32,000 nt of DNA from Gammaproteobacteria bacterium. GTDB taxonomy: Bacteria > Pseudomonadota > Gammaproteobacteria > Chromatiales > Chromatiaceae. The notes under the pieces were generated by a model that made no database searches, was not told the origin of the DNA, and saw only the letters and a list, made by a program, of their open reading frames with translations. How positions within the stretch are numbered: the stretch's first letter is position 1; each line of letters opens with the position of its first letter. The translations under genes were made by a program, and so were the position numbers. Where the stretch lies: the NCBI GenBank assembly GCA_030148485.1, contig JASBTJ010000025.1, positions 23,236 through 55,235 of the forward strand. Reading direction: 5' to 3'. Shown one piece after another: positions 10,243 to 18,188 of the stretch.

Positions 10243-13200
10243 TCACCGGCCACCGTCGAACTGACGGATCGCTTGCCGCCGCAATTCCTTCGGCATCGTT
10301 CGTAGGAACCTGTCTTCTGCCGTCATCCGCTTATCCCTCAGCCGCCATTTGATCTGCTGCCTGTTGATGACAATGGGAAGCTGTGGATTGGCCTGATTCC
10401 ACTTCGCAAGCTCCTCCCGTGCTTCGCGAATCATGGTCTTGTCTCGTTCGAAGATCCCCTGTGCCCACTTGTCGGCGATAGCATCCTTCCGCAGCCGGTG
10501 CATATTTCTGTCCTCTGTCAGCATGCGCTTTGCCGCCTGAATCTTGGACACCCGATTGGGATGGAACCCGATCGCCTTCCACACAGATTCTCCGAGCGTT
10601 GCATCCGTGACCTTGCGGTCCTGCCAATCGCGGTACTCGCCGGTCCGCATCATGTCGATGCCCTGCGCGATATGTCCTATTGCACGCGGGGCCAACTCGC
10701 CTCCCGCGCTTTGCAGTTCCCCGCGCGCGACCTTTTCCGCGGCGCGCGTCGCGCTCTGGACTAGCGATCCCGCTGGGCCGAGCAATTCAGCAGTATCCCG
10801 CCCTTTGCTGGGATTGGACGGTACCAGCGCGCCGGTGCCGGGAATCAAATTTCCAAGCGATAACCGAGATTGCACATCGATGGGCATTCCGGGTATGCCG
10901 GACACGCCTTTGAGAAGAATATCGCCGAAGGTGTTGCCCAGCGTCTGGTGCGCCCACTCTTGCAGTTGGCGCTTGCTGTTGGTCGGGTACCCCATCCACT
11001 GTCCGATCGCGTCGATAATATCCTCCAGGTCTTCCGCGAAGGGCAGGCCCTCTAGCCCCGCACCAGCAACCAACAAGGCCAAGGCGATAGCCTTCTGCTT
11101 CGCGGGCAGGCGACCGATGAACTCCAGGTAGTTCACCAAGAACTGCTTGAAGGTGAACAGCGGCGCCCCGATGCCACGCGCCCAGTTTGGCCTGTTGTGG
11201 CGGGCGTATACGAACTGGGTTTCCTCGACGGCTTCCTTGGCGAAAGCGTAGGGGTCTGCCGCCCCTTTGCGTCGAGCAATGTCGTAGGCCGCATTGAATG
11301 TCAATAACCGGTTGTATTGTTCGGCTGTCTGGAAGAAGTATCCCCAGGCGTACAGCGCAATTTGTGCGGGTTGGCTTTGCAGCAGCTTTCCACCACCCAA
11401 TCGCCCACCCCTGGCCGTGGCCATCAGGTTGTATATCTCTTGGGGCGCTACGACGCCTTCTTCCTTGGCGCGTTTAATCGCTTCACGGTGAGCGGGGTCG
11501 GTTGGCGCCCGACCACTCATCCACTTTGCGACCTTGGCCGGTGCTGCTGCATCGAACTGCGTCAGATAAGGGACCGTGACCATCGGCACTTGGGTCAGGT
11601 TCGTGAGGGCCGATGAGATGGATCCGCCCAGGAAGTGAAAGAACATATAACTCCGGATGCCGGAGAATTCCTCGCGTGGATTTTGCAGGTAGTCAACCAG
11701 TCGCTGGGCCTGTTTTTGCACGTCCCCCTGCGACTTAGGAATATCCTGGACGGCTTGCAGCATGTCGCCCATGTTCAGGTTCTTAGAGGCGGCATTCGCG
11801 TTACTGAGTACGAATGAAGCCAGCACACGGCGTAAGTCATTGGAGAAGCCCGGTATCCCCTTCCGCGTAATCAGACGCTTGAGCGCTGAGCGGTTGTTTA
11901 CTGCATTCTTTAGGTATTCCTGCATCGCCGCGTCTTGATCGACACCAAGGTGGCGAGCGAACAGTTCAATGGTTTCTGGAGTCAACCCGGAATACAGCTT
12001 GAACGCCTCGTCGTTCAGCACCCCGGTTTCAATTTCCGCACCCGGGTATTCCGCGCGCATCATGCGAGTCATCCGGTTGGTTTCCGCCTTCGATTCGAAC
12101 ATGCCGAAGTAGACGCGCTTGCCGTCAGCGTCAACGACATCAACCGTGTACTTGCCAAAGCGTGTCAGCGGAAAATAGCCCTCGCGCTTTAACTTCTGTG
12201 CCTTGTTGGCGATCTTCACCAGGTCTTTACGGGACGCATCTACCAAGGCGATCTTTTTCTGCCACTTGGCGGCGCGGGCCTCAGCCCCATCCGTGCCCTT
12301 TGCTAATGCGAGGTTCTCTTCCAGTTCTTCCCGCACCTCGGAAAGGATCCGGTCCAAGTTCTCTTGCACTTCGAACACCGTCTCGGTGCCCTCGCCCAGG
12401 GCCATGTCACCAAGTTCCCGTGGCATACCCAGCTTGCGGGTCATGCGGACCATGGCTGTTTTTGTCAGATCGTCCAGCGAGTGGTGTGCCGATGCGATGA
12501 CCTGCCGGTACAGGCCGATCTGCTTGGCGTTCAGGCCAAATTGCTTAGACAGCTCTTCATCCGCATACACCTTCTGCTGCGCAATGGTTCCCTCGAATAC
12601 GGCGTTGGCCACCAATTCAAGGTCTGCCGTTCGAGCGTTGCCCGTCGTGGCGGCTTTCTTCAAGGTGTCGGACCGGCGGAAAAGATCAGGCGCAAGCCGC
12701 TCCGACCGAATGGCATAAGTTGACGTGTCCGTCATGTAGTCTTCGGCCAAGTTGTAGACCCGGGCGAAGTGGCTATTCTTCTTCGCCAGCCCGCGCATGG
12801 TGCCAACGGACTTCTGCCATAACGTGACCTTGCCGGGGCCGGTGAAGTGATCCTCGGCATATTGGGATGCTGAACGGGACAAATCCCGAACCGCCTTCAC
12901 CCCTTCCACGGGGTCAAAGCCGGATTGCAGGGTACCAGGGCCAGATGCGCCCTTGGGCGGCGTGAGGTCTAGCTGGCCGCCTTCTTCGCGTCCCCGTAAC
13001 GCCAAGGCAAATCCAGACCGGAGTCGTCCCAGCTCGGGATCCTCCCCGTTTCCAGCGCCTCGATCATGATCTGCTCGAGGGCGTCCCCCTGGCCGTCCAG
13101 GCTGACGTACCGCAACAGACCCTCGGGCAAAGGACCAAACCTTTCTCGATACGTCTCGTGTAACTGGATCGGATTCAGCTTGGAATAGTCCATGGTAGAC

Positions 13201-15987
13201 CTCGTAGGCTTTCGGCAGCGCGGCGCGCATCGCGGCCGGCTCTGCAAAGTAGATTACACCAAGTCGGGCAAACAGTTCTGCCTTCACGCGGTCATCGGGC
13301 AAAAGACCGCGGTCAGCAACCGGATACCGCAGCAATCGCGCCAATTCCCCGTTGTTGGAAACGTGGTCGATCGCCTCGCGGGCGATGTCGCCCTTATCCA
13401 AGTCGAGCCGAGGGCTGCTCGCACTGATCGTTCGATCCGCCCCGACCACATCCACGGCATGCAGCAATTCTTCCGCGACGAATGCGGCAGCGGTATCACG
13501 GTGTAGCTGGTACGCCGGGTCGAACTCCACTACGCGGTCATCAAGAGAAAACCGCATGGGAACACCGACAGGTAGCGCCTCATTCGGCACGAAATCCAGG
13601 CCCAGCCGAAGACCGGTGATCTTCTCGGCGTCGGCAATTGCGGTGCCCATGTCCACGGGATCGCTGCCCAATTCGCTGAACGCCGCCTGGGATTTGTTAC
13701 GGGCATCCAGCTTGCCGCTGTCGTTGCTCAGGCTCGCACCAGTGATGTCCTCGGCGTCATACCGCGCCGATGGCGTGAGCTTGCGTTGCCACGCCTGATT
13801 CTTTGGTGACCACCGAAACCCCTTCCCCTTGAGCGCCCGAATCGTCTCCTGCGGCGGCTTCTCGTCATGCTTGATGCGCAGCACACCGGCAGCGTGGTCA
13901 AGTTCGATATGGCCGTCCTCGAACGCGACCGATTCGCTCCCGCCGGTGGATTTTGCCGCGGCAGACTGCGATTCCAGGGCATCCACCCGCTGACGCAGCC
14001 GGCGAATCTCCGCATTGTTGTTGCTCAGCTCGAAGGTCTTGAAGCCGGTGCGGCCTGCGAAATCGGGCTTATTGAGGGCGTCGATTTGCTTGTCCGTCAG
14101 GCCAATATCCAGAAGCTGGGCGCGCTTTTCGCTGTCCTTCAGTTTCTTGCTGCGCAGTACCTTATTGGCCGCCTTCATCTGCTCTTGGGCCTTCTCGCGC
14201 TGGGCGAGCTTGCTCTTGGCTTGAGTGAGCTGTGCTTGGGTGCTGTTGTCGACCGGGCCTTTCGCCAGTTTCTTGAGCCGCTTCACGCCGCGCTCGTAGA
14301 AGGCCATCGCTTCATCAAGCCGCTTATCCGCCGAGCGCATGCGTTTCTCGTTGGCCGCCACCGGGAACTTCGCCGGGCCGGTGATGAACGCGCTGGCTAC
14401 CCGGCCATGTGCACTCAAGTAAGCGCGCAGCTTGTTCGCGTAGCTCTCCCGGAACTGGGGGAAGAATTTCGCAACCCGGGCCCGGCCCGCCTCATCCTTG
14501 ATGCTCGCTTCGACATCACGCCATGCCCGCACCATGTCTTGGACATATTCACGTCGGGCCAGATTGCCGCGCTTATCCGGCGTGTGGCTGGTATTCCGAT
14601 ACGCTTGATAGGCCAGATCGGCGGGGATGTCGTCCTCGACCACCTTCACCGGCAACTGAGTCTCAGCGATCTGTTTCACGCCTTCGTATTGCCCGTCGTG
14701 AACGGCTTGGGCCACCTCGTCAATCTCCGCGCCGCTGCGGGATACCTTCCCTTCGCGGGCCTTGTCCATCAAGGCCTGAACGTCGCCGAACGGATCGTCT
14801 CGGCCCAAGGCTTTGGCGCGCTCTGTGACGGATGCTTGGCCGGTGTCGGCGGCAGGTTGATCGACAGACTCAGGCTTCAGCTGCTCCGGACGGGCCGATT
14901 CGTCTGCCCGCGCTTCCCTGGTTTCCGGTGACTTGGGTTGCTCCTGCTCGGACGGCACAACAGGTTCGGACGGGCGACCAGAAGCCGACTGCGCTACATC
15001 TGATTTGCTTTCGGCCGAATCCGGCGTAATACTTTCATCAAGCTCTGGTTGATTCCGGCCCATCGCTTCGGGCGTATCTGCGACGCCTCCCTCGGGAGTA
15101 GCACGTAAGGGGGTACGGGTCTTCCTGAGCGTTTTCTTTGCAGGTTCCTGGATCAGTCCCTTGCGCGTGTACTTCACGCGGCCGTCGCCCAGGTCTTGCA
15201 TGTCGAACCGCTCGCGCAGTCCCATCTTGTTCAGGCCGCGCAGCCTGGTGGACTTCGGCATGATGATCTCGTCGATGGCATCGTCGGTCACCGCATCCAC
15301 CACGAATTCCTTCCCGCCCACGATGCCAGTTCCTGGTTTTTGGTGCTCCCGACCGCTCAGGGCGTCACCGCGGAACTTCACCAATACCCCCTTGTTCCCG
15401 CCCTGCCCAATCGCCAGCGACTCGTCATCAGTCACGAACATGCCATTGGGGCGAGGCGTAATGTTCTCGTTCTCAGGCTTGGTGCGGTTGTCCAACAGCA
15501 GACTGTCCAACCCATTTTCGTTTGTCTCGCGCCAGTAGCTCCCTGCCGGCAACGGATTCAGTTTGACCGTTGCGCCAAGCCCAATATTCAGGATCCTGCC
15601 AGACTCGATAACCGGGCGACGTTCCGGCAACTCAGTAGCCGCACTGCTATCCTGTGGCGAAGGCTCAGGCGGTGCAGGCTGGTCCTGCGCTGTCCGTGGC
15701 GTCGGCATTGCCACATCCACATTGCCCGGCATTGACCCGGTGCTGGCGTTCTTCGGCGCGGTCCACGCCGGTGGCGCCTGCTGGGGCTGTGGCTGCGCCT
15801 GGGCAGCCTGGACCACTTGGCGTTGGGGCTCGGCCTGCCGCTGGGCATTCGCTGGATCCAGGGCATCCCGGGCAGCCTGATCGACCTGCTTCGGATCCAC
15901 ATGGGCGTCCTCGATACGCCGGAGCACCTGGCCGCCCAGCCGCTCCTGGGGCGTGGCCACGTTGCCGGACGCACCGGCACCGACCAA
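10243..15987 (-). CDS. giant polyvalent-type protein, PLxRFG domain-containing (1914-codon segment downstream of an in-frame TAG)
   Basis: Uninterrupted 5745-nt frame. FPLTRFGKY (PLxRFG motif) is encoded at 12154-12171. A DUF3560-like motif, VAFEDGHIELD...KPPQETIRALKGKGFRWSPKNQAWQR, is encoded at about 13780-13960. P/Q-rich and acidic linkers separate globular blocks. The C-terminal ~900 aa contain hydrophobic helices. The only start is a TTG, and the 24 codons upstream stay open and look coding. Confidence 0.8.
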   Translation of the reverse strand: MVGAGASGNVATPQERLGGQVLRRIEDAHVDPKQVDQAARDALDPANAQRQAEPQRQVVQAAQAQPQPQQAPPAWTAPKNASTGSMPGNVDVAMPTPRTAQDQPAPPEPSPQDSSAATELPERRPVIESGRILNIGLGATVKLNPLPAGSYWRETNENGLDSLLLDNRTKPENENITPRPNGMFVTDDESLAIGQGGNKGVLVKFRGDALSGREHQKPGTGIVGGKEFVVDAVTDDAIDEIIMPKSTRLRGLNKMGLRERFDMQDLGDGRVKYTRKGLIQEPAKKTLRKTRTPLRATPEGGVADTPEAMGRNQPELDESITPDSAESKSDVAQSASGRPSEPVVPSEQEQPKSPETREARADESARPEQLKPESVDQPAADTGQASVTERAKALGRDDPFGDVQALMDKAREGKVSRSGAEIDEVAQAVHDGQYEGVKQIAETQLPVKVVEDDIPADLAYQAYRNTSHTPDKRGNLARREYVQDMVRAWRDVEASIKDEAGRARVAKFFPQFRESYANKLRAYLSAHGRVASAFITGPAKFPVAANEKRMRSADKRLDEAMAFYERGVKRLKKLAKGPVDNSTQAQLTQAKSKLAQREKAQEQMKAANKVLRSKKLKDSEKRAQLLDIGLTDKQIDALNKPDFAGRTGFKTFELSNNNAEIRRLRQRVDALESQSAAAKSTGGSESVAFEDGHIELDHAAGVLRIKHDEKPPQETIRALKGKGFRWSPKNQAWQRKLTPSARYDAEDITGASLSNDSGKLDARNKSQAAFSELGSDPVDMGTAIADAEKITGLRLGLDFVPNEALPVGVPMRFSLDDRVVEFDPAYQLHRDTAAAFVAEELLHAVDVVGADRTISASSPRLDLDKGDIAREAIDHVSNNGELARLLRYPVADRGLLPDDRVKAELFARLGVIYFAEPAAMRAALPKAYEVYHGLFQAESDPVTRDVSRKVWSFARGSVAVRQPGRPGGRPRADHDRGAGNGEDPELGRLRSGFALALRGREEGGQLDLTPPKGASGPGTLQSGFDPVEGVKAVRDLSRSASQYAEDHFTGPGKVTLWQKSVGTMRGLAKKNSHFARVYNLAEDYMTDTSTYAIRSERLAPDLFRRSDTLKKAATTGNARTADLELVANAVFEGTIAQQKVYADEELSKQFGLNAKQIGLYRQVIASAHHSLDDLTKTAMVRMTRKLGMPRELGDMALGEGTETVFEVQENLDRILSEVREELEENLALAKGTDGAEARAAKWQKKIALVDASRKDLVKIANKAQKLKREGYFPLTRFGKYTVDVVDADGKRVYFGMFESKAETNRMTRMMRAEYPGAEIETGVLNDEAFKLYSGLTPETIELFARHLGVDQDAAMQEYLKNAVNNRSALKRLITRKGIPGFSNDLRRVLASFVLSNANAASKNLNMGDMLQAVQDIPKSQGDVQKQAQRLVDYLQNPREEFSGIRSYMFFHFLGGSISSALTNLTQVPMVTVPYLTQFDAAAPAKVAKWMSGRAPTDPAHREAIKRAKEEGVVAPQEIYNLMATARGGRLGGGKLLQSQPAQIALYAWGYFFQTAEQYNRLLTFNAAYDIARRKGAADPYAFAKEAVEETQFVYARHNRPNWARGIGAPLFTFKQFLVNYLEFIGRLPAKQKAIALALLVAGAGLEGLPFAEDLEDIIDAIGQWMGYPTNSKRQLQEWAHQTLGNTFGDILLKGVSGIPGMPIDVQSRLSLGNLIPGTGALVPSNPSKGRDTAELLGPAGSLVQSATRAAEKVARGELQSAGGELAPRAIGHIAQGIDMMRTGEYRDWQDRKVTDATLGESVWKAIGFHPNRVSKIQAAKRMLTEDRNMHRLRKDAIADKWAQGIFERDKTMIREAREELAKWNQANPQLPIVINRQQIKWRLRDKRMTAEDRFLRTMPKELRRQAIRQFDGGR
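12969..13193 (-). CDS. embedded alternative-frame ORF (74 aa) inside the giant gene; status uncertain
   Basis: ATG preceded by GAGGT 5 nt upstream. It reads MDYSKLNPIQLHETYRERFGPLPEGLLRYVSLDGQGDALEQIMIEALETGRIPSWDDSGLDLPWRYGDAKKAAS. By hand count its third-position G+C is 59/74. Over the same stretch the giant-ORF frame scores 36/80 and translates as R/G/P-rich low complexity. Confidence 0.45.
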   Translation of the reverse strand: MDYSKLNPIQLHETYRERFGPLPEGLLRYVSLDGQGDALEQIMIEALETGRIPSWDDSGLDLPWRYGDAKKAAS

Positions 15988-16059: not shown

Positions 16060-17268
16060 CTAAACACCCTCTTGGCCGCCTTCGAACGCGGCCCCGAGGG
16101 TGCGCAGAGTGAGTTGCCCACCGGTGTCGCCAAATAGGCCCAGCTTATTGGTGACCGCCAACAAGCCGGCATTTTGCCAAAAGGCCCGGTCGGCGGCCTT
16201 GGCTGCCGCTTTCTCGCCCTTGCCGTCCGCCATCATCTGCTCATACACGGCGCCAGCCTCTACGGCAGCCTCCATGCCAGCCGCGGCCCCGCTGCCCAGC
16301 CAAAGCCCCATGCGAGGCGACACCGATGCCACAGCTTGGGCGCCCTTTGCCAGCCCCATGCCGGGAACGAAAAACGTCGTGGTCGAGCCGGCACCGGCGG
16401 CCAGATTATCCAGGAAGTTCTGATCTGAAGGCATCAGGTCAGCCGCCTGTTGGGTGACCTTGAGCTGCCCTTCCCGCAAGGCATTGGATCCGGTCATGCG
16501 GGCGGCATAGCCCAGCAATCCCCCGCCGGTTTGGATGGCCCCGGCCGTGAAATCCTTGGCGCCCCGGGTTGCCACTCCTTCGGCCGGGCCTATCTGCTCC
16601 CGGGCGCGCTTGGCGGTCGTGGGTGCGTCGAAGCGGCGACCGTCACCGGCGTCGTCCAGCCCGACCTGACGGCCAGCCAAGTACAGCGCCACATTCGGGT
16701 CACCGCCCACGGGCACCGCATCCGGATTGCCGAACAGGCTGTCCAAGGCCTGACGGAACGCAGTCTGCTCAGGTGCCGCCCGTACGCCGGCCCCGGGGGC
16801 TTTCGCCAGCACCTCACCGGTTACGTCCGGATACAGCGTCTGCACGGCATTTGTGATGGCCCTTTGTTCAGCGGCTTGCCTGGCCCTAACACCACCGCGG
16901 CCGGTGTACCCGAACTGGCCGTCCTGGGGCGCCTCCGGCATCAACGCGCTGAGCATGTCACCCAGCCCTGGGCCGGTCTGCATGATGCCCTTGGTCGGGA
17001 ACGGCTCTGTCGGTATGGCCGGCGTTTCCTGTGGCGCCGGTGGCGCCGTGGCCGCCTGGATCGCACTCAACGCCTCATTGACGCCGGCAATACCTCCGCT
17101 ACCCGGCGTAACCGGTGCCGCCAGCACCGGTGCCACCCCAAACCGCGCCCCGAAGTCCTCCGGCGTCAGCTTGTCCGCATAGTGCTTCTGATACAGGCGA
17201 GTTGCCAGATCGTCGTCTGGCAAGGTGTCGTATTGCGGATACTGAGCGCGGAACTCGGTGATGTTCAT
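16060..17268 (-). CDS. N-terminal segment of the polyvalent-protein frame (402 aa, ends at in-frame TAG)
   Basis: Start MNITEFRAQYPQYDTLPDDDL overlaps the helicase stop as ATGA. It has Ala/Gly/Pro-rich linkers and a Gly/Ala-rich hydrophobic C-terminal region. It is in the same frame as 10243..15987, since 17304-15987 = 1317 = 3 x 439. Confidence 0.7.
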   Translation of the reverse strand: MNITEFRAQYPQYDTLPDDDLATRLYQKHYADKLTPEDFGARFGVAPVLAAPVTPGSGGIAGVNEALSAIQAATAPPAPQETPAIPTEPFPTKGIMQTGPGLGDMLSALMPEAPQDGQFGYTGRGGVRARQAAEQRAITNAVQTLYPDVTGEVLAKAPGAGVRAAPEQTAFRQALDSLFGNPDAVPVGGDPNVALYLAGRQVGLDDAGDGRRFDAPTTAKRAREQIGPAEGVATRGAKDFTAGAIQTGGGLLGYAARMTGSNALREGQLKVTQQAADLMPSDQNFLDNLAAGAGSTTTFFVPGMGLAKGAQAVASVSPRMGLWLGSGAAAGMEAAVEAGAVYEQMMADGKGEKAAAKAADRAFWQNAGLLAVTNKLGLFGDTGGQLTLRTLGAAFEGGQEGV

Positions 17269-18188
17269 TGCATCAAGTCTCCTATAACGTCGACTCCCCA
17301 GCACATTACCCGGCCAGCTTTATCAGGCACGAACTGCTGGCTGGCGCCGTGGTACCAGAGGTTCACAATCCCTTCCCACTCGCCATGTCGCTGCTTAGCA
17401 ACGTTCAGCGTCGCATCAGGCTCACCAGGATCGCGCGCTCTGCCTACGCGGGCGTCCTCCTCCTTCGCCTTGTTGCGATGCACGATGAAAACGTTGTCGA
17501 CTAGGTCGGTAATCTCGGCTGCTCCGCGGATGTCGAACTTGTCCGGACGCCGATGCTCGTTCTCCCCCTTACGCATGTGAGCAATGAGCACGATGTGCAA
17601 ACCGCTTCCCTTGGCAAGCCAGCAGAGGCGATCCACGAAGTTCTTTTGGGCGTTGTAGTCGTCGGTCCCGATGCCGCACTTCATCAGCGAGTCGATGATC
17701 AAAATGTCTGCTTCGAGAACTTCAGCGGCGTAAACGGTCATACCCAAAATGCGGTCGGTTGGCACACTGTCTTGCTGGTCGTAGATCCACAGTCTGCCAT
17801 CAGTCCAAGACAGGAACCCGTCGATGAAACTCCTCGCCGGGGCGGCAGTGCCTGACGCCTGACGAATCATCCGCTGCAGAGTGGCTGCTGGTGGCATCTC
17901 CATGGACGCGATCACGGTCTTAGCTTCGGGAAGGAGCCACAACGCAATCTGTCCAGTGAGCATGGATTTTCCGTGTCCATTAATGCCTGCAGCGATAGTG
18001 ACCTCGCCAGGACGCAGTGCAACATTGGCGTGAGTCTTGGACCAAGGTAGCGGGAAACCACTTTGCTGCTCCTTCCCCGAGAAACGATCGACTACTGCGG
18101 CATGCCATTCACTTGCTGGACGGACACAGTCACCCTCGCGGTTCTGCAGATACTTGGAGAAATCGATATTGTCTGGGATCACTTGCAT
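17265..18188 (-). CDS. DnaB/RepA-like replicative helicase (RecA-fold ATPase)
   Basis: 307-aa ORF with Walker A AAGINGHGKSM and Walker B ADILIIDSL, then LHIVLIAHMRKG and DIRGAAEITDLVDNVFIVHR, as in DnaB C-terminal/phage primase-helicase ATPase domains. Confidence 0.75.
   Translation of the reverse strand: MQVIPDNIDFSKYLQNREGDCVRPASEWHAAVVDRFSGKEQQSGFPLPWSKTHANVALRPGEVTIAAGINGHGKSMLTGQIALWLLPEAKTVIASMEMPPAATLQRMIRQASGTAAPARSFIDGFLSWTDGRLWIYDQQDSVPTDRILGMTVYAAEVLEADILIIDSLMKCGIGTDDYNAQKNFVDRLCWLAKGSGLHIVLIAHMRKGENEHRRPDKFDIRGAAEITDLVDNVFIVHRNKAKEEDARVGRARDPGEPDATLNVAKQRHGEWEGIVNLWYHGASQQFVPDKAGRVMCWGVDVIGDLMQ

Follow-up and report, generated by a model that had tools for sequence, protein, structure and literature searches.

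Our analysis concerns a stretch of 32,000 nucleotides (nt) from a draft genome of the Chromatiaceae (Gammaproteobacteria; contig JASBTJ010000025.1), hereafter referred to as the window, which contains a giant open reading frame (ORF) for a protein that by its family matches is a phage-type polyvalent protein. Within this ORF, the positions 12969-13193 very probably form a true dual-coding stretch, as judged from the comparison of related loci: a small gene, which we named B, appears to be nested in the +1 frame of the giant gene, whose own reading is referred to as the G frame. All coordinates of the overlap are positions in the window and relate to the minus strand (Table 1). The giant gene would be read straight through in its own frame, yielding a disordered loop of ~45 residues within a zincin-like domain (domain A) and then the last helix of that domain. 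Ribosomes would also start independently on the same mRNA, at an internal GAGG-N6-ATG in the +1 frame, and the result would be a separate, mildly acidic three-helix protein of 74 amino acids (aa), B.

Composition of the overlap

An earlier note, made from the letters of the window only, had reported that the coding signal within the giant ORF jumps to another frame. The coordinates, the spacing between GAGGT and ATG, the start, the 74 codons and the TAG that it gave were all reproduced, and its hand counts of G or C at the third codon position (GC3; 59/74 for the small frame and 36/80 for the giant frame over the overlap) proved exact on recount; counted from the ATG of B the giant frame has 31/75. 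The GC3 of the giant ORF outside the overlap is 0.718, and the average number of G/C third positions per segment of 75 codons is 52.8 ± 5.8. When the profile was made along the giant ORF, the frame switch was indeed seen: the overlap is the lowest of all 1839 segments, and the segments with a count ≤ 33 all cluster at 13188-13215. The sliding profile also shows that position 1 of the giant frame climbs to 0.80-0.88 GC at the overlap, as is typical where the coding frame has moved by +1. A second and milder dip in the GC3 of the giant frame (0.48-0.52), less extreme than that in the B region, occurs at 15050-15150 (minus strand), in an acidic/proline-rich linker.

The +1 frame stays open for 94 codons at B, and the giant ORF is free of stops across the same stretch. 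The openness of the +1 frame was rejected as significant by itself, since +1 runs of ≥ 75 codons cover 7-40% of the positions in such GC-rich genes. The significance of B therefore rests on the comparative evidence and not on the ORF.

Homologues of B and their loci

A HMMER scan of 1.84 billion cluster representatives yielded four small proteins (P0002-P0005, 69-131 aa) that align to B from Met1 onward (E 3e-10 to 5e-7). DNA encoding B was recovered from Nitrosospira genomes, IMG/VR contigs and metagenome contigs; the small ORF was nested at the same +1 offset each time, and the host ORF was giant in all these cases except L009 (a contig of 1.1 kb). When residues 770-1060 of the giant frame were used as the query, 16 more giant proteins of 1253-3293 aa were obtained, and DNA was retrieved for eleven of them. 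Two further new loci, L022 and L026, came from viral contigs that were scanned in six frames with just the upstream domain. The sample thus comprised 17 distinct loci: that of the window, L003, L008, L009, L010-L020, L022 and L026, of which the window, L003, L008, L009, L022 and L026 were found without reference to giant gene calls. The earlier note had allowed for the case that the 74-aa sequence is conserved nowhere; homologues were found both in the databases and in the 17 loci.

The arrangement of the small ORF was the same throughout. In all 17 loci a +1 ORF of 70-87 codons follows directly after the giant-frame motif LPxAY[EG][AV][FY] and reaches its stop 220-265 nt downstream. The ATG is found at the homologous base in 16 of the 17 and is preceded, 6 nt upstream, by GGAG or GAGG in as many; the glycine codons at this Shine-Dalgarno site all read GGA. 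The amino acid sequences have diverged considerably (16-46% identity between the B of the window and those of the 16 other loci, and only 16-23% for the most distant ones), and Y15, F19, A31 and W55 are kept even in the most distant small ORFs. A hidden Markov model built from the 11 close B sequences scored the six distant ones at E 2e-7 to 0.039, each of them better than any of 983 decoys, i.e. off-frame ORFs from the same genes, the best of which reached 0.29.

B was left uncalled on every long contig with listed gene calls (L010-L020), and its database entries all stem from places at which the giant ORF had been cut by chance. Neither INPHARED phages nor PLSDB plasmids gave a match to B by tblastn, nor did phages to domain A; a six-frame search for B in 60 relatives and a search for domain A in 400 genomes of the class recovered nothing outside the genome of the window itself. 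These empty searches indicate that the module is rare in the sampled genomes. A word-indexed protein search with B was likewise without match, a result limited by the sensitivity of that search.

Some of the homologues vary in the way B begins or continues. In eight loci (L003, L008, L009, L011, L014, L015, L020 and L022) there is a second in-frame ATG 12 nt (four codons) upstream of the ATG of B; this additional start reads ATGGAGCATTCAATG (M-E-H-S-M) in seven of them and ATGGAGCTTACGATG (M-E-L-T-M) in L022, and B may start four residues earlier in this subclade, where the GGA of the glycine codon also preserves GGAG. The largest of the small proteins, P0002 (131 aa), consists of a complete B, then a repeat of FGELPE and then sequence that resembles the giant-frame loop and helix (GESGSNG...AELEHLRDAISEAF). 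It looks like a partial tandem duplication with a change of frame, by which the two readings may have come to lie side by side there.

Selection on the two frames

The two frames were compared for the first 57 codons of B by the mean pairwise nucleotide identity per codon position, where position 2 of B is position 3 of the giant frame. In the overlap the identities were 0.567, 0.603 and 0.435 at B positions 1, 2 and 3, and in the upstream control, which codes in a single frame, they were 0.615, 0.678 and 0.343 at giant-frame positions 1, 2 and 3. The identity at third positions of the giant frame is thus 0.603 in the overlap versus 0.343 in the control. As the lowest identity is found at position 3 of B in the overlap and at position 3 of the giant frame in the control, the wobble signature has moved to the frame of B.

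The ratio of non-synonymous to synonymous substitution rates (dN/dS, Nei-Gojobori) points in the same direction. It is 0.06-0.38 for the B frame in 8 of 9 pairs (0.59 in the pair L018-L026), 0.84-12 for the giant frame on the same bases, and 0.07-0.21 for the control, upstream domain A, in the five pairs where it was computable and valid; the ungapped comparison of L009 and L015 (indel) and the upstream control of L009 (missing homology) were disregarded as invalid. In three independent close pairs, silent changes in B that alter the giant-frame amino acid were set against changes of the opposite kind; the ratios are 8:2, 14:1 and 17:7, where random mutation would give ~0.20:0.24. By these substitution patterns, the B frame is under purifying selection, and of the two frames that the earlier note wished to see compared among homologues it is the conserved one.

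Near the end of B there is a stretch of eight codons (Table 1) in which all codon positions are conserved (identity 0.61, 0.73 and 0.60, versus 0.34 at ordinary third positions). Here the first codons of the giant-frame motif ELGRLRxxIxxxFxxxxxGxxVxF, which is conserved in all 17 giant homologues, lie over the PxWDD[YF]V of B. Past these codons the giant-frame pattern returns, with position 3 as the lowest, and the tail of B is unconstrained. Only about eight codons (ELGRLR / PxWDD) thus appear to be tightly constrained in both frames. The earlier note had supposed that a giant-frame translation conserved among homologues would speak against a nested gene. Two parts of it are conserved, the ELGRLR..F helix and PVTxExSRxxW, the latter as a by-product of the B frame; the opposition was ill-posed, and the nested gene is not refuted by it.

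Predicted structures of B and domain A

AlphaFold2 modelled B from an alignment of 15 sequences with a mean predicted local distance difference test score (pLDDT) of 81.6 and a predicted template modelling score of 0.63; the model consists of three helices (residues 8-19, 26-33 and 36-49) with a loose tail behind them. The isoelectric point is 4.4-6.7 in 12 of the 17 loci, i.e. mostly acidic to neutral. No family match was obtained for B in Pfam, NCBIfam or PHROGs, and Foldseek found nothing below E = 1.7 for its model in PDB and BFVD.

In the model of the giant-frame segment the part that is shared with B does not lie between domains. The alpha/beta core of domain A is interrupted by a disordered loop, rich in arginine, glycine and proline, and then completed by a terminal helix and a short strand. 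The helices of B map exactly onto the loop, and its tail and stop codon onto the region of the terminal helix. As the core of B lies over the giant-frame loop and its tail over the giant-frame helix, each frame would pay little for the other. The first reading of the earlier note, an overprinted gene in a linker, was thereby upheld for the gene (17 loci, purifying selection on B, giant frame kept open) and corrected for the linker: in the AlphaFold model the host segment is an internal loop of a folded domain.

Domain A itself has no sequence match in Pfam or PDB. An alignment of 14 homologues contains 23 invariant columns, including E839-E840-x-x-H843-x-x-D846 (AEELLHAVD). Almost all of the top Foldseek matches are of the zincin type and include abylysin, selecase, PPEP-1, MtfA-like proteins, M32 and lethal factor; the best local match was 4jiu (prob 0.98, TMt 0.52, root-mean-square deviation 2.1 over 67 columns). 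The model thus suggests that domain A is probably a zincin-like domain with an atypical metal motif. Two findings count against this assignment: the matches are weak (E 0.04-2), and the canonical HExxH is absent from domain A, the first histidine being a glutamate in 14/14 sequences.

Domain A is found at positions from residue 169 to ~2000 of proteins in which it has different neighbours (ART-PolyVal, LPD1, LPD3, InPase, SLT, ResIII), and B accompanies it in every locus whose DNA was read. A profile search for a stand-alone domain A returned just one fragment of 279 aa, from a contig of 1.3 kb, and no free-standing version.

Alternative readings of the overlap

One alternative, which we consider improbable, is that A, B and the downstream part C are separate genes, that only the small frame is used in the overlap and that the giant frame is open across B by chance. 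Such an arrangement would agree with the lack of amino acid constraint on the giant frame in the overlap (dN/dS ~1 or more) and with its very low GC3, with the fact that gene callers do call B on short contigs (P0003-P0005), and with the giant-frame stop that is present in L009, 106 nt upstream of the ATG of B. However, no full locus would then offer gene A a stop codon, the parts on either side of B always share one frame, and the helix past the loop is conserved and modelled with high confidence beside domain A.

Chance was also evaluated directly. When the amino acids of B were kept fixed and the synonymous codons were resampled from the codon usage of each locus, the giant frame was stop-free with a probability of 0.001-0.13 per locus (median ~3%), versus 15 open frames observed in the 15 loci simulated, in each of which the third frame carries 2-6 stops; as the loci are related by descent, these per-locus probabilities are not simply multipliable. 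In segments of the same length elsewhere in such genes the -1 frame is open at a rate of 0-0.19 and the +1 frame at a rate of 0-0.14. The giant frame is open across B in L022 and L026 as well, which makes 17/17 and includes all six loci that were found independently of gene calls. The frequency of open frames thus indicates that the giant frame is kept open by selection across the overlap.

Besides the shared descent of the loci, some other points weigh against the dual-coding reading. Eleven of the loci (L010-L020) entered the sample through long gene calls, which biases them toward an open giant frame. Where the other loci have their ATG and their GGAG or GAGG, L017 has neither (its giant frame reads YKLYKS), but an in-frame ATG lies 8 codons upstream; its +1 frame (L017:1864-2172) is still open and homologous to B (E 2e-4). 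L009 (Ga0105101_10148997, 1-1133) keeps B, the loop and the helix, but its homology to domain A ends ~8 codons upstream of the ATG of B, and this copy may have been rearranged or be decaying, with B in effect standing by itself. The called 74-aa protein P0004 is a close relative of L009.

Programmed frameshifts are common in phage genes, and B might be reached by a ribosome that slips +1 near 13193, giving a fusion of A and B that ends at the TAG, or that slips twice, giving a giant protein of which B is a part. The B frame is the +1 frame of the giant gene, and its start coincides exactly with the point at which the conservation of domain A is interrupted, as such a slip would have it. But neither kind of slip needs an ATG that is conserved in 16 of 17 loci, nor a Shine-Dalgarno sequence at a fixed spacing. 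Between -60 and +30 nt relative to the junction, 14 of the 17 loci have no X XXY YYZ heptamer in the giant frame and the remaining three have it at other, non-homologous positions, and RNAalifold predicted 0 pairs for 13 loci in the region from -60 to +40 nt around the ATG. Furthermore, the giant frame is selectively stop-free, the helix after the overlap belongs to domain A, and the HMMER scan of the 1.84 billion clusters found no large protein with B in frame. A frameshift product is hence given little chance. The second reading of the earlier note had joined this possibility to that of three cistrons, and both lost ground on the same observations: a giant frame stop-free beyond expectation, a conserved ATG and Shine-Dalgarno sequence, and the lack of a conserved slippery site or RNA structure.

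It is about equally unlikely that B is not a functional protein and that its frame is conserved passively, because the giant frame or the nucleic acid itself (e.g. an RNA element) is constrained. Constraint in one frame does force some constraint in the other, and both translations align across the loci, with a mean pairwise identity of 0.37 for B and 0.35 for the giant frame. The asymmetry is nevertheless the wrong way round for such an explanation, since the third positions of the giant frame are the most conserved class and those of B the least, and most substitutions alter the giant-frame amino acid but not that of B. No RNA structure was predicted by RNAalifold, the model of B is confident whereas the giant-frame reading of the same DNA is disordered, and the start and stop codons of B are kept.

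An assembly artefact or a recent compensated pair of indels (the pair of indels being the third reading of the earlier note), with a true protein that would hold B in frame, can practically be dismissed: the window does come from a draft assembly of 97 contigs and the local frame switch does resemble a +1/-1 indel pair, but the frame offset and the start position recur unchanged, with a stop 220-265 nt further on, in 16 other independently assembled loci, including that of the isolate Nitrosospira sp. Nsp11, B ends in a stop codon in every locus, and the arrangement is thus ancient.

For the dual-coding reading, independent initiation at the internal Shine-Dalgarno sequence and ATG on the giant mRNA would be the simplest model, as for Rz1 inside Rz. 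No sigma-70-like promoter was found in 12700-13700, a region that includes ~500 nt upstream of the ATG of B, and B is therefore probably read from the mRNA of the giant gene.

The host gene and its element

The giant protein contains at least three modules. NCBIfam NF032893 (PLxRFG domain) matches residues 1270-1902 (E 1.2e-148), and PHROG matches were found from residue 1049 onward (phrog_11358 and phrog_21376) and at 512-748 (phrog_19458/phrog_6744); a Pfam scan of the giant protein of the window gave no family at E ≤ 0.01. Precomputed annotations assign PF18857 (LPD38) to its homologues, whose domains comprise LPD38, ART-PolyVal, LPD1, LPD3, InPase, SLT and ResIII. The gene adjoins those for a DnaB-like helicase and a P4-type tyrosine integrase, and a tRNA-Lys, within a small integrative element (an island of 13 kb), and homologues of the giant protein are present on IMG/VR viral contigs. 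On the basis of the NF032893 and PHROG matches and of the domains of the homologues, the host was assigned to the phage-type polyvalent proteins in the sense of Iyer et al. 2017 (PMC5512222), who count LPD38 among the domains of this class and propose that embedded peptidases process the polyvalent polyprotein.

Two neighbouring genes were also recorded. Upstream of the giant ORF there is an ORF of 414 aa (16060-17304), which at its N terminus matches the beginning of phrog_10691, another giant PHROG family. In two distant loci (L016:13-501 and L018:16-504) a ferritin/rubrerythrin-like gene of 162 aa directly precedes the polyvalent-protein gene and overlaps its start by one codon.

Table 1. 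Features of the giant ORF and of the predicted overlap, with positions in the window
Feature	Position	Strand	Remarks
Giant ORF, assigned to the phage-type polyvalent proteins	10243..15987	minus	1914 aa; NF032893 and PHROG matches
Shine-Dalgarno-like GAGGT before the nested ATG	13199..13203	minus	5 nt between GAGGT and ATG
Putative nested gene B	12969..13193	minus	+1 frame of the giant ORF; ATG 13193-13191, 74 sense codons, TAG 12971-12969
Domain A core, predicted alpha/beta fold	13177..13689	minus	giant residues ~766-937; AlphaFold pLDDT ~90 at model residues 5-176
Predicted disordered giant-frame loop, R/G/P-rich	13045..13176	minus	giant residues ~938-981; pLDDT <40 at model residues 177-220
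Predicted terminal helix and short strand of domain A	12955..13044	minus	giant residues ~982-1011; pLDDT 79-94 at model residues 221-250, helix 223-235
Eight codons constrained in both frames	13012..13035	minus	giant ELGRLRSG, B PSWDDSG with invariant W55
PLxRFG (LPD38-type) C-terminal module	10282..12180	minus	NF032893, 496.6 bits vs cutoff 100

Possible function and significance

Because domain A recurs in varied positions and with varied neighbours and B is always along, B may be taken to act together with domain A. The most likely hypothesis is that it does so as an inhibitor or antidote, as an activator or as an assembly partner. Since B sits inside a loop of domain A itself, the pair would be inseparable when the domains of polyvalent proteins are shuffled. 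A more specific proposal, which we put forward tentatively and regard as doubtful, is that B is a dedicated partner (antidote, inhibitor or activator) of an atypical EExxH peptidase-like domain, and that the two form an indivisible recombination unit that is shuffled among the polyvalent proteins of phages and satellites. If true, this would be a self-contained module of an effector plus its safety catch, of a kind not described for polyvalent proteins or polymorphic toxins. A mutation that leaves the giant-frame protein unaltered can remove the start of B, which makes the hypothesis directly testable.

Polyvalent proteins are thought to enter with the invading DNA and to disarm the host, and if a partner were encoded unseen along with them, their domains would have to be catalogued and tested differently. 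With B and domain A, the polyvalent-protein toolkit gains a small protein family and an as yet unmodelled domain, both of them new. Nested genes on the same strand are a known phenomenon, but to our knowledge bacteria and their elements offer few well-supported examples. Since gene callers do not allow such genes, they are left unannotated. The case of B is unusually clean, with seventeen diverged loci, opposite selection signatures and complementary structure predictions (ordered over disordered). B is a new and unusually well-supported nested gene, in a class of genes for which Iyer et al. 2017 (PMC5512222) describe none. The one paper found to contain both 'polyvalent protein' and 'overlapping gene' (PMC13299392) has each of these terms a single time and concerns a podovirus.

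Comparison with known systems

The closest formal parallel is the spanin pair of phage lambda: Rz1 is read in the +1 frame within Rz, from a start and a ribosome-binding site that belong to it, both proteins come from one mRNA, and they act together. B resembles Rz1 in being fully contained, on the same strand and in the +1 frame, within a larger gene, and in having a predicted ribosome-binding site and start of its own. Unlike Rz1, which is a lipoprotein with a signal sequence and a role in lysis, B has no signal peptide or lipobox and looks cytoplasmic; its host is a polyvalent protein of 1914 aa instead of a spanin, and there is no similarity to spanins in sequence or fold.

The genes B, K and E of phiX174, inside A, C and D, likewise represent dual coding on the same strand with a structured part over a permissive part, and these overprints too are detected by suppressed variation at the synonymous sites of the host frame. 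Overprinting of the phiX174 type is usually explained by the pressure on genome size in tiny capsids. In the present case the element is an integrative island of 13 kb, or a larger phage genome, with no obvious size pressure, and we infer that the linkage of B to domain A during domain shuffling would be a more attractive rationale.

As for the host, its gene is a member of the polyvalent proteins described by Iyer et al. 2017 (PMC5512222), with PLxRFG at the C terminus. The text of that description contains neither 'overlapping' nor 'frameshift' and no nested frames, and domain A has no Pfam model. The conserved ExxxH helix in the model of domain A aligns with the active-site helix of zincins and minigluzincins (abylysin 4jiu, selecase 4qhi, PPEP-1, MtfA 3khi); unlike in these proteins, the first zinc-binding histidine of HExxH is a glutamate, and the matches are weak (E ≥ 0.04, TM ≤ 0.52 over ~70 residues). 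Finally, the arrangement is reminiscent, by analogy, of toxin-immunity and enzyme-inhibitor pairs (polymorphic toxins; serralysin/Inh), in which a small partner is linked to a shuffled enzymatic module. In these pairs the gene of the partner is found downstream, whereas B lies inside the coding sequence of domain A, with which, on this analogy, it may form a partnership of the same sort.

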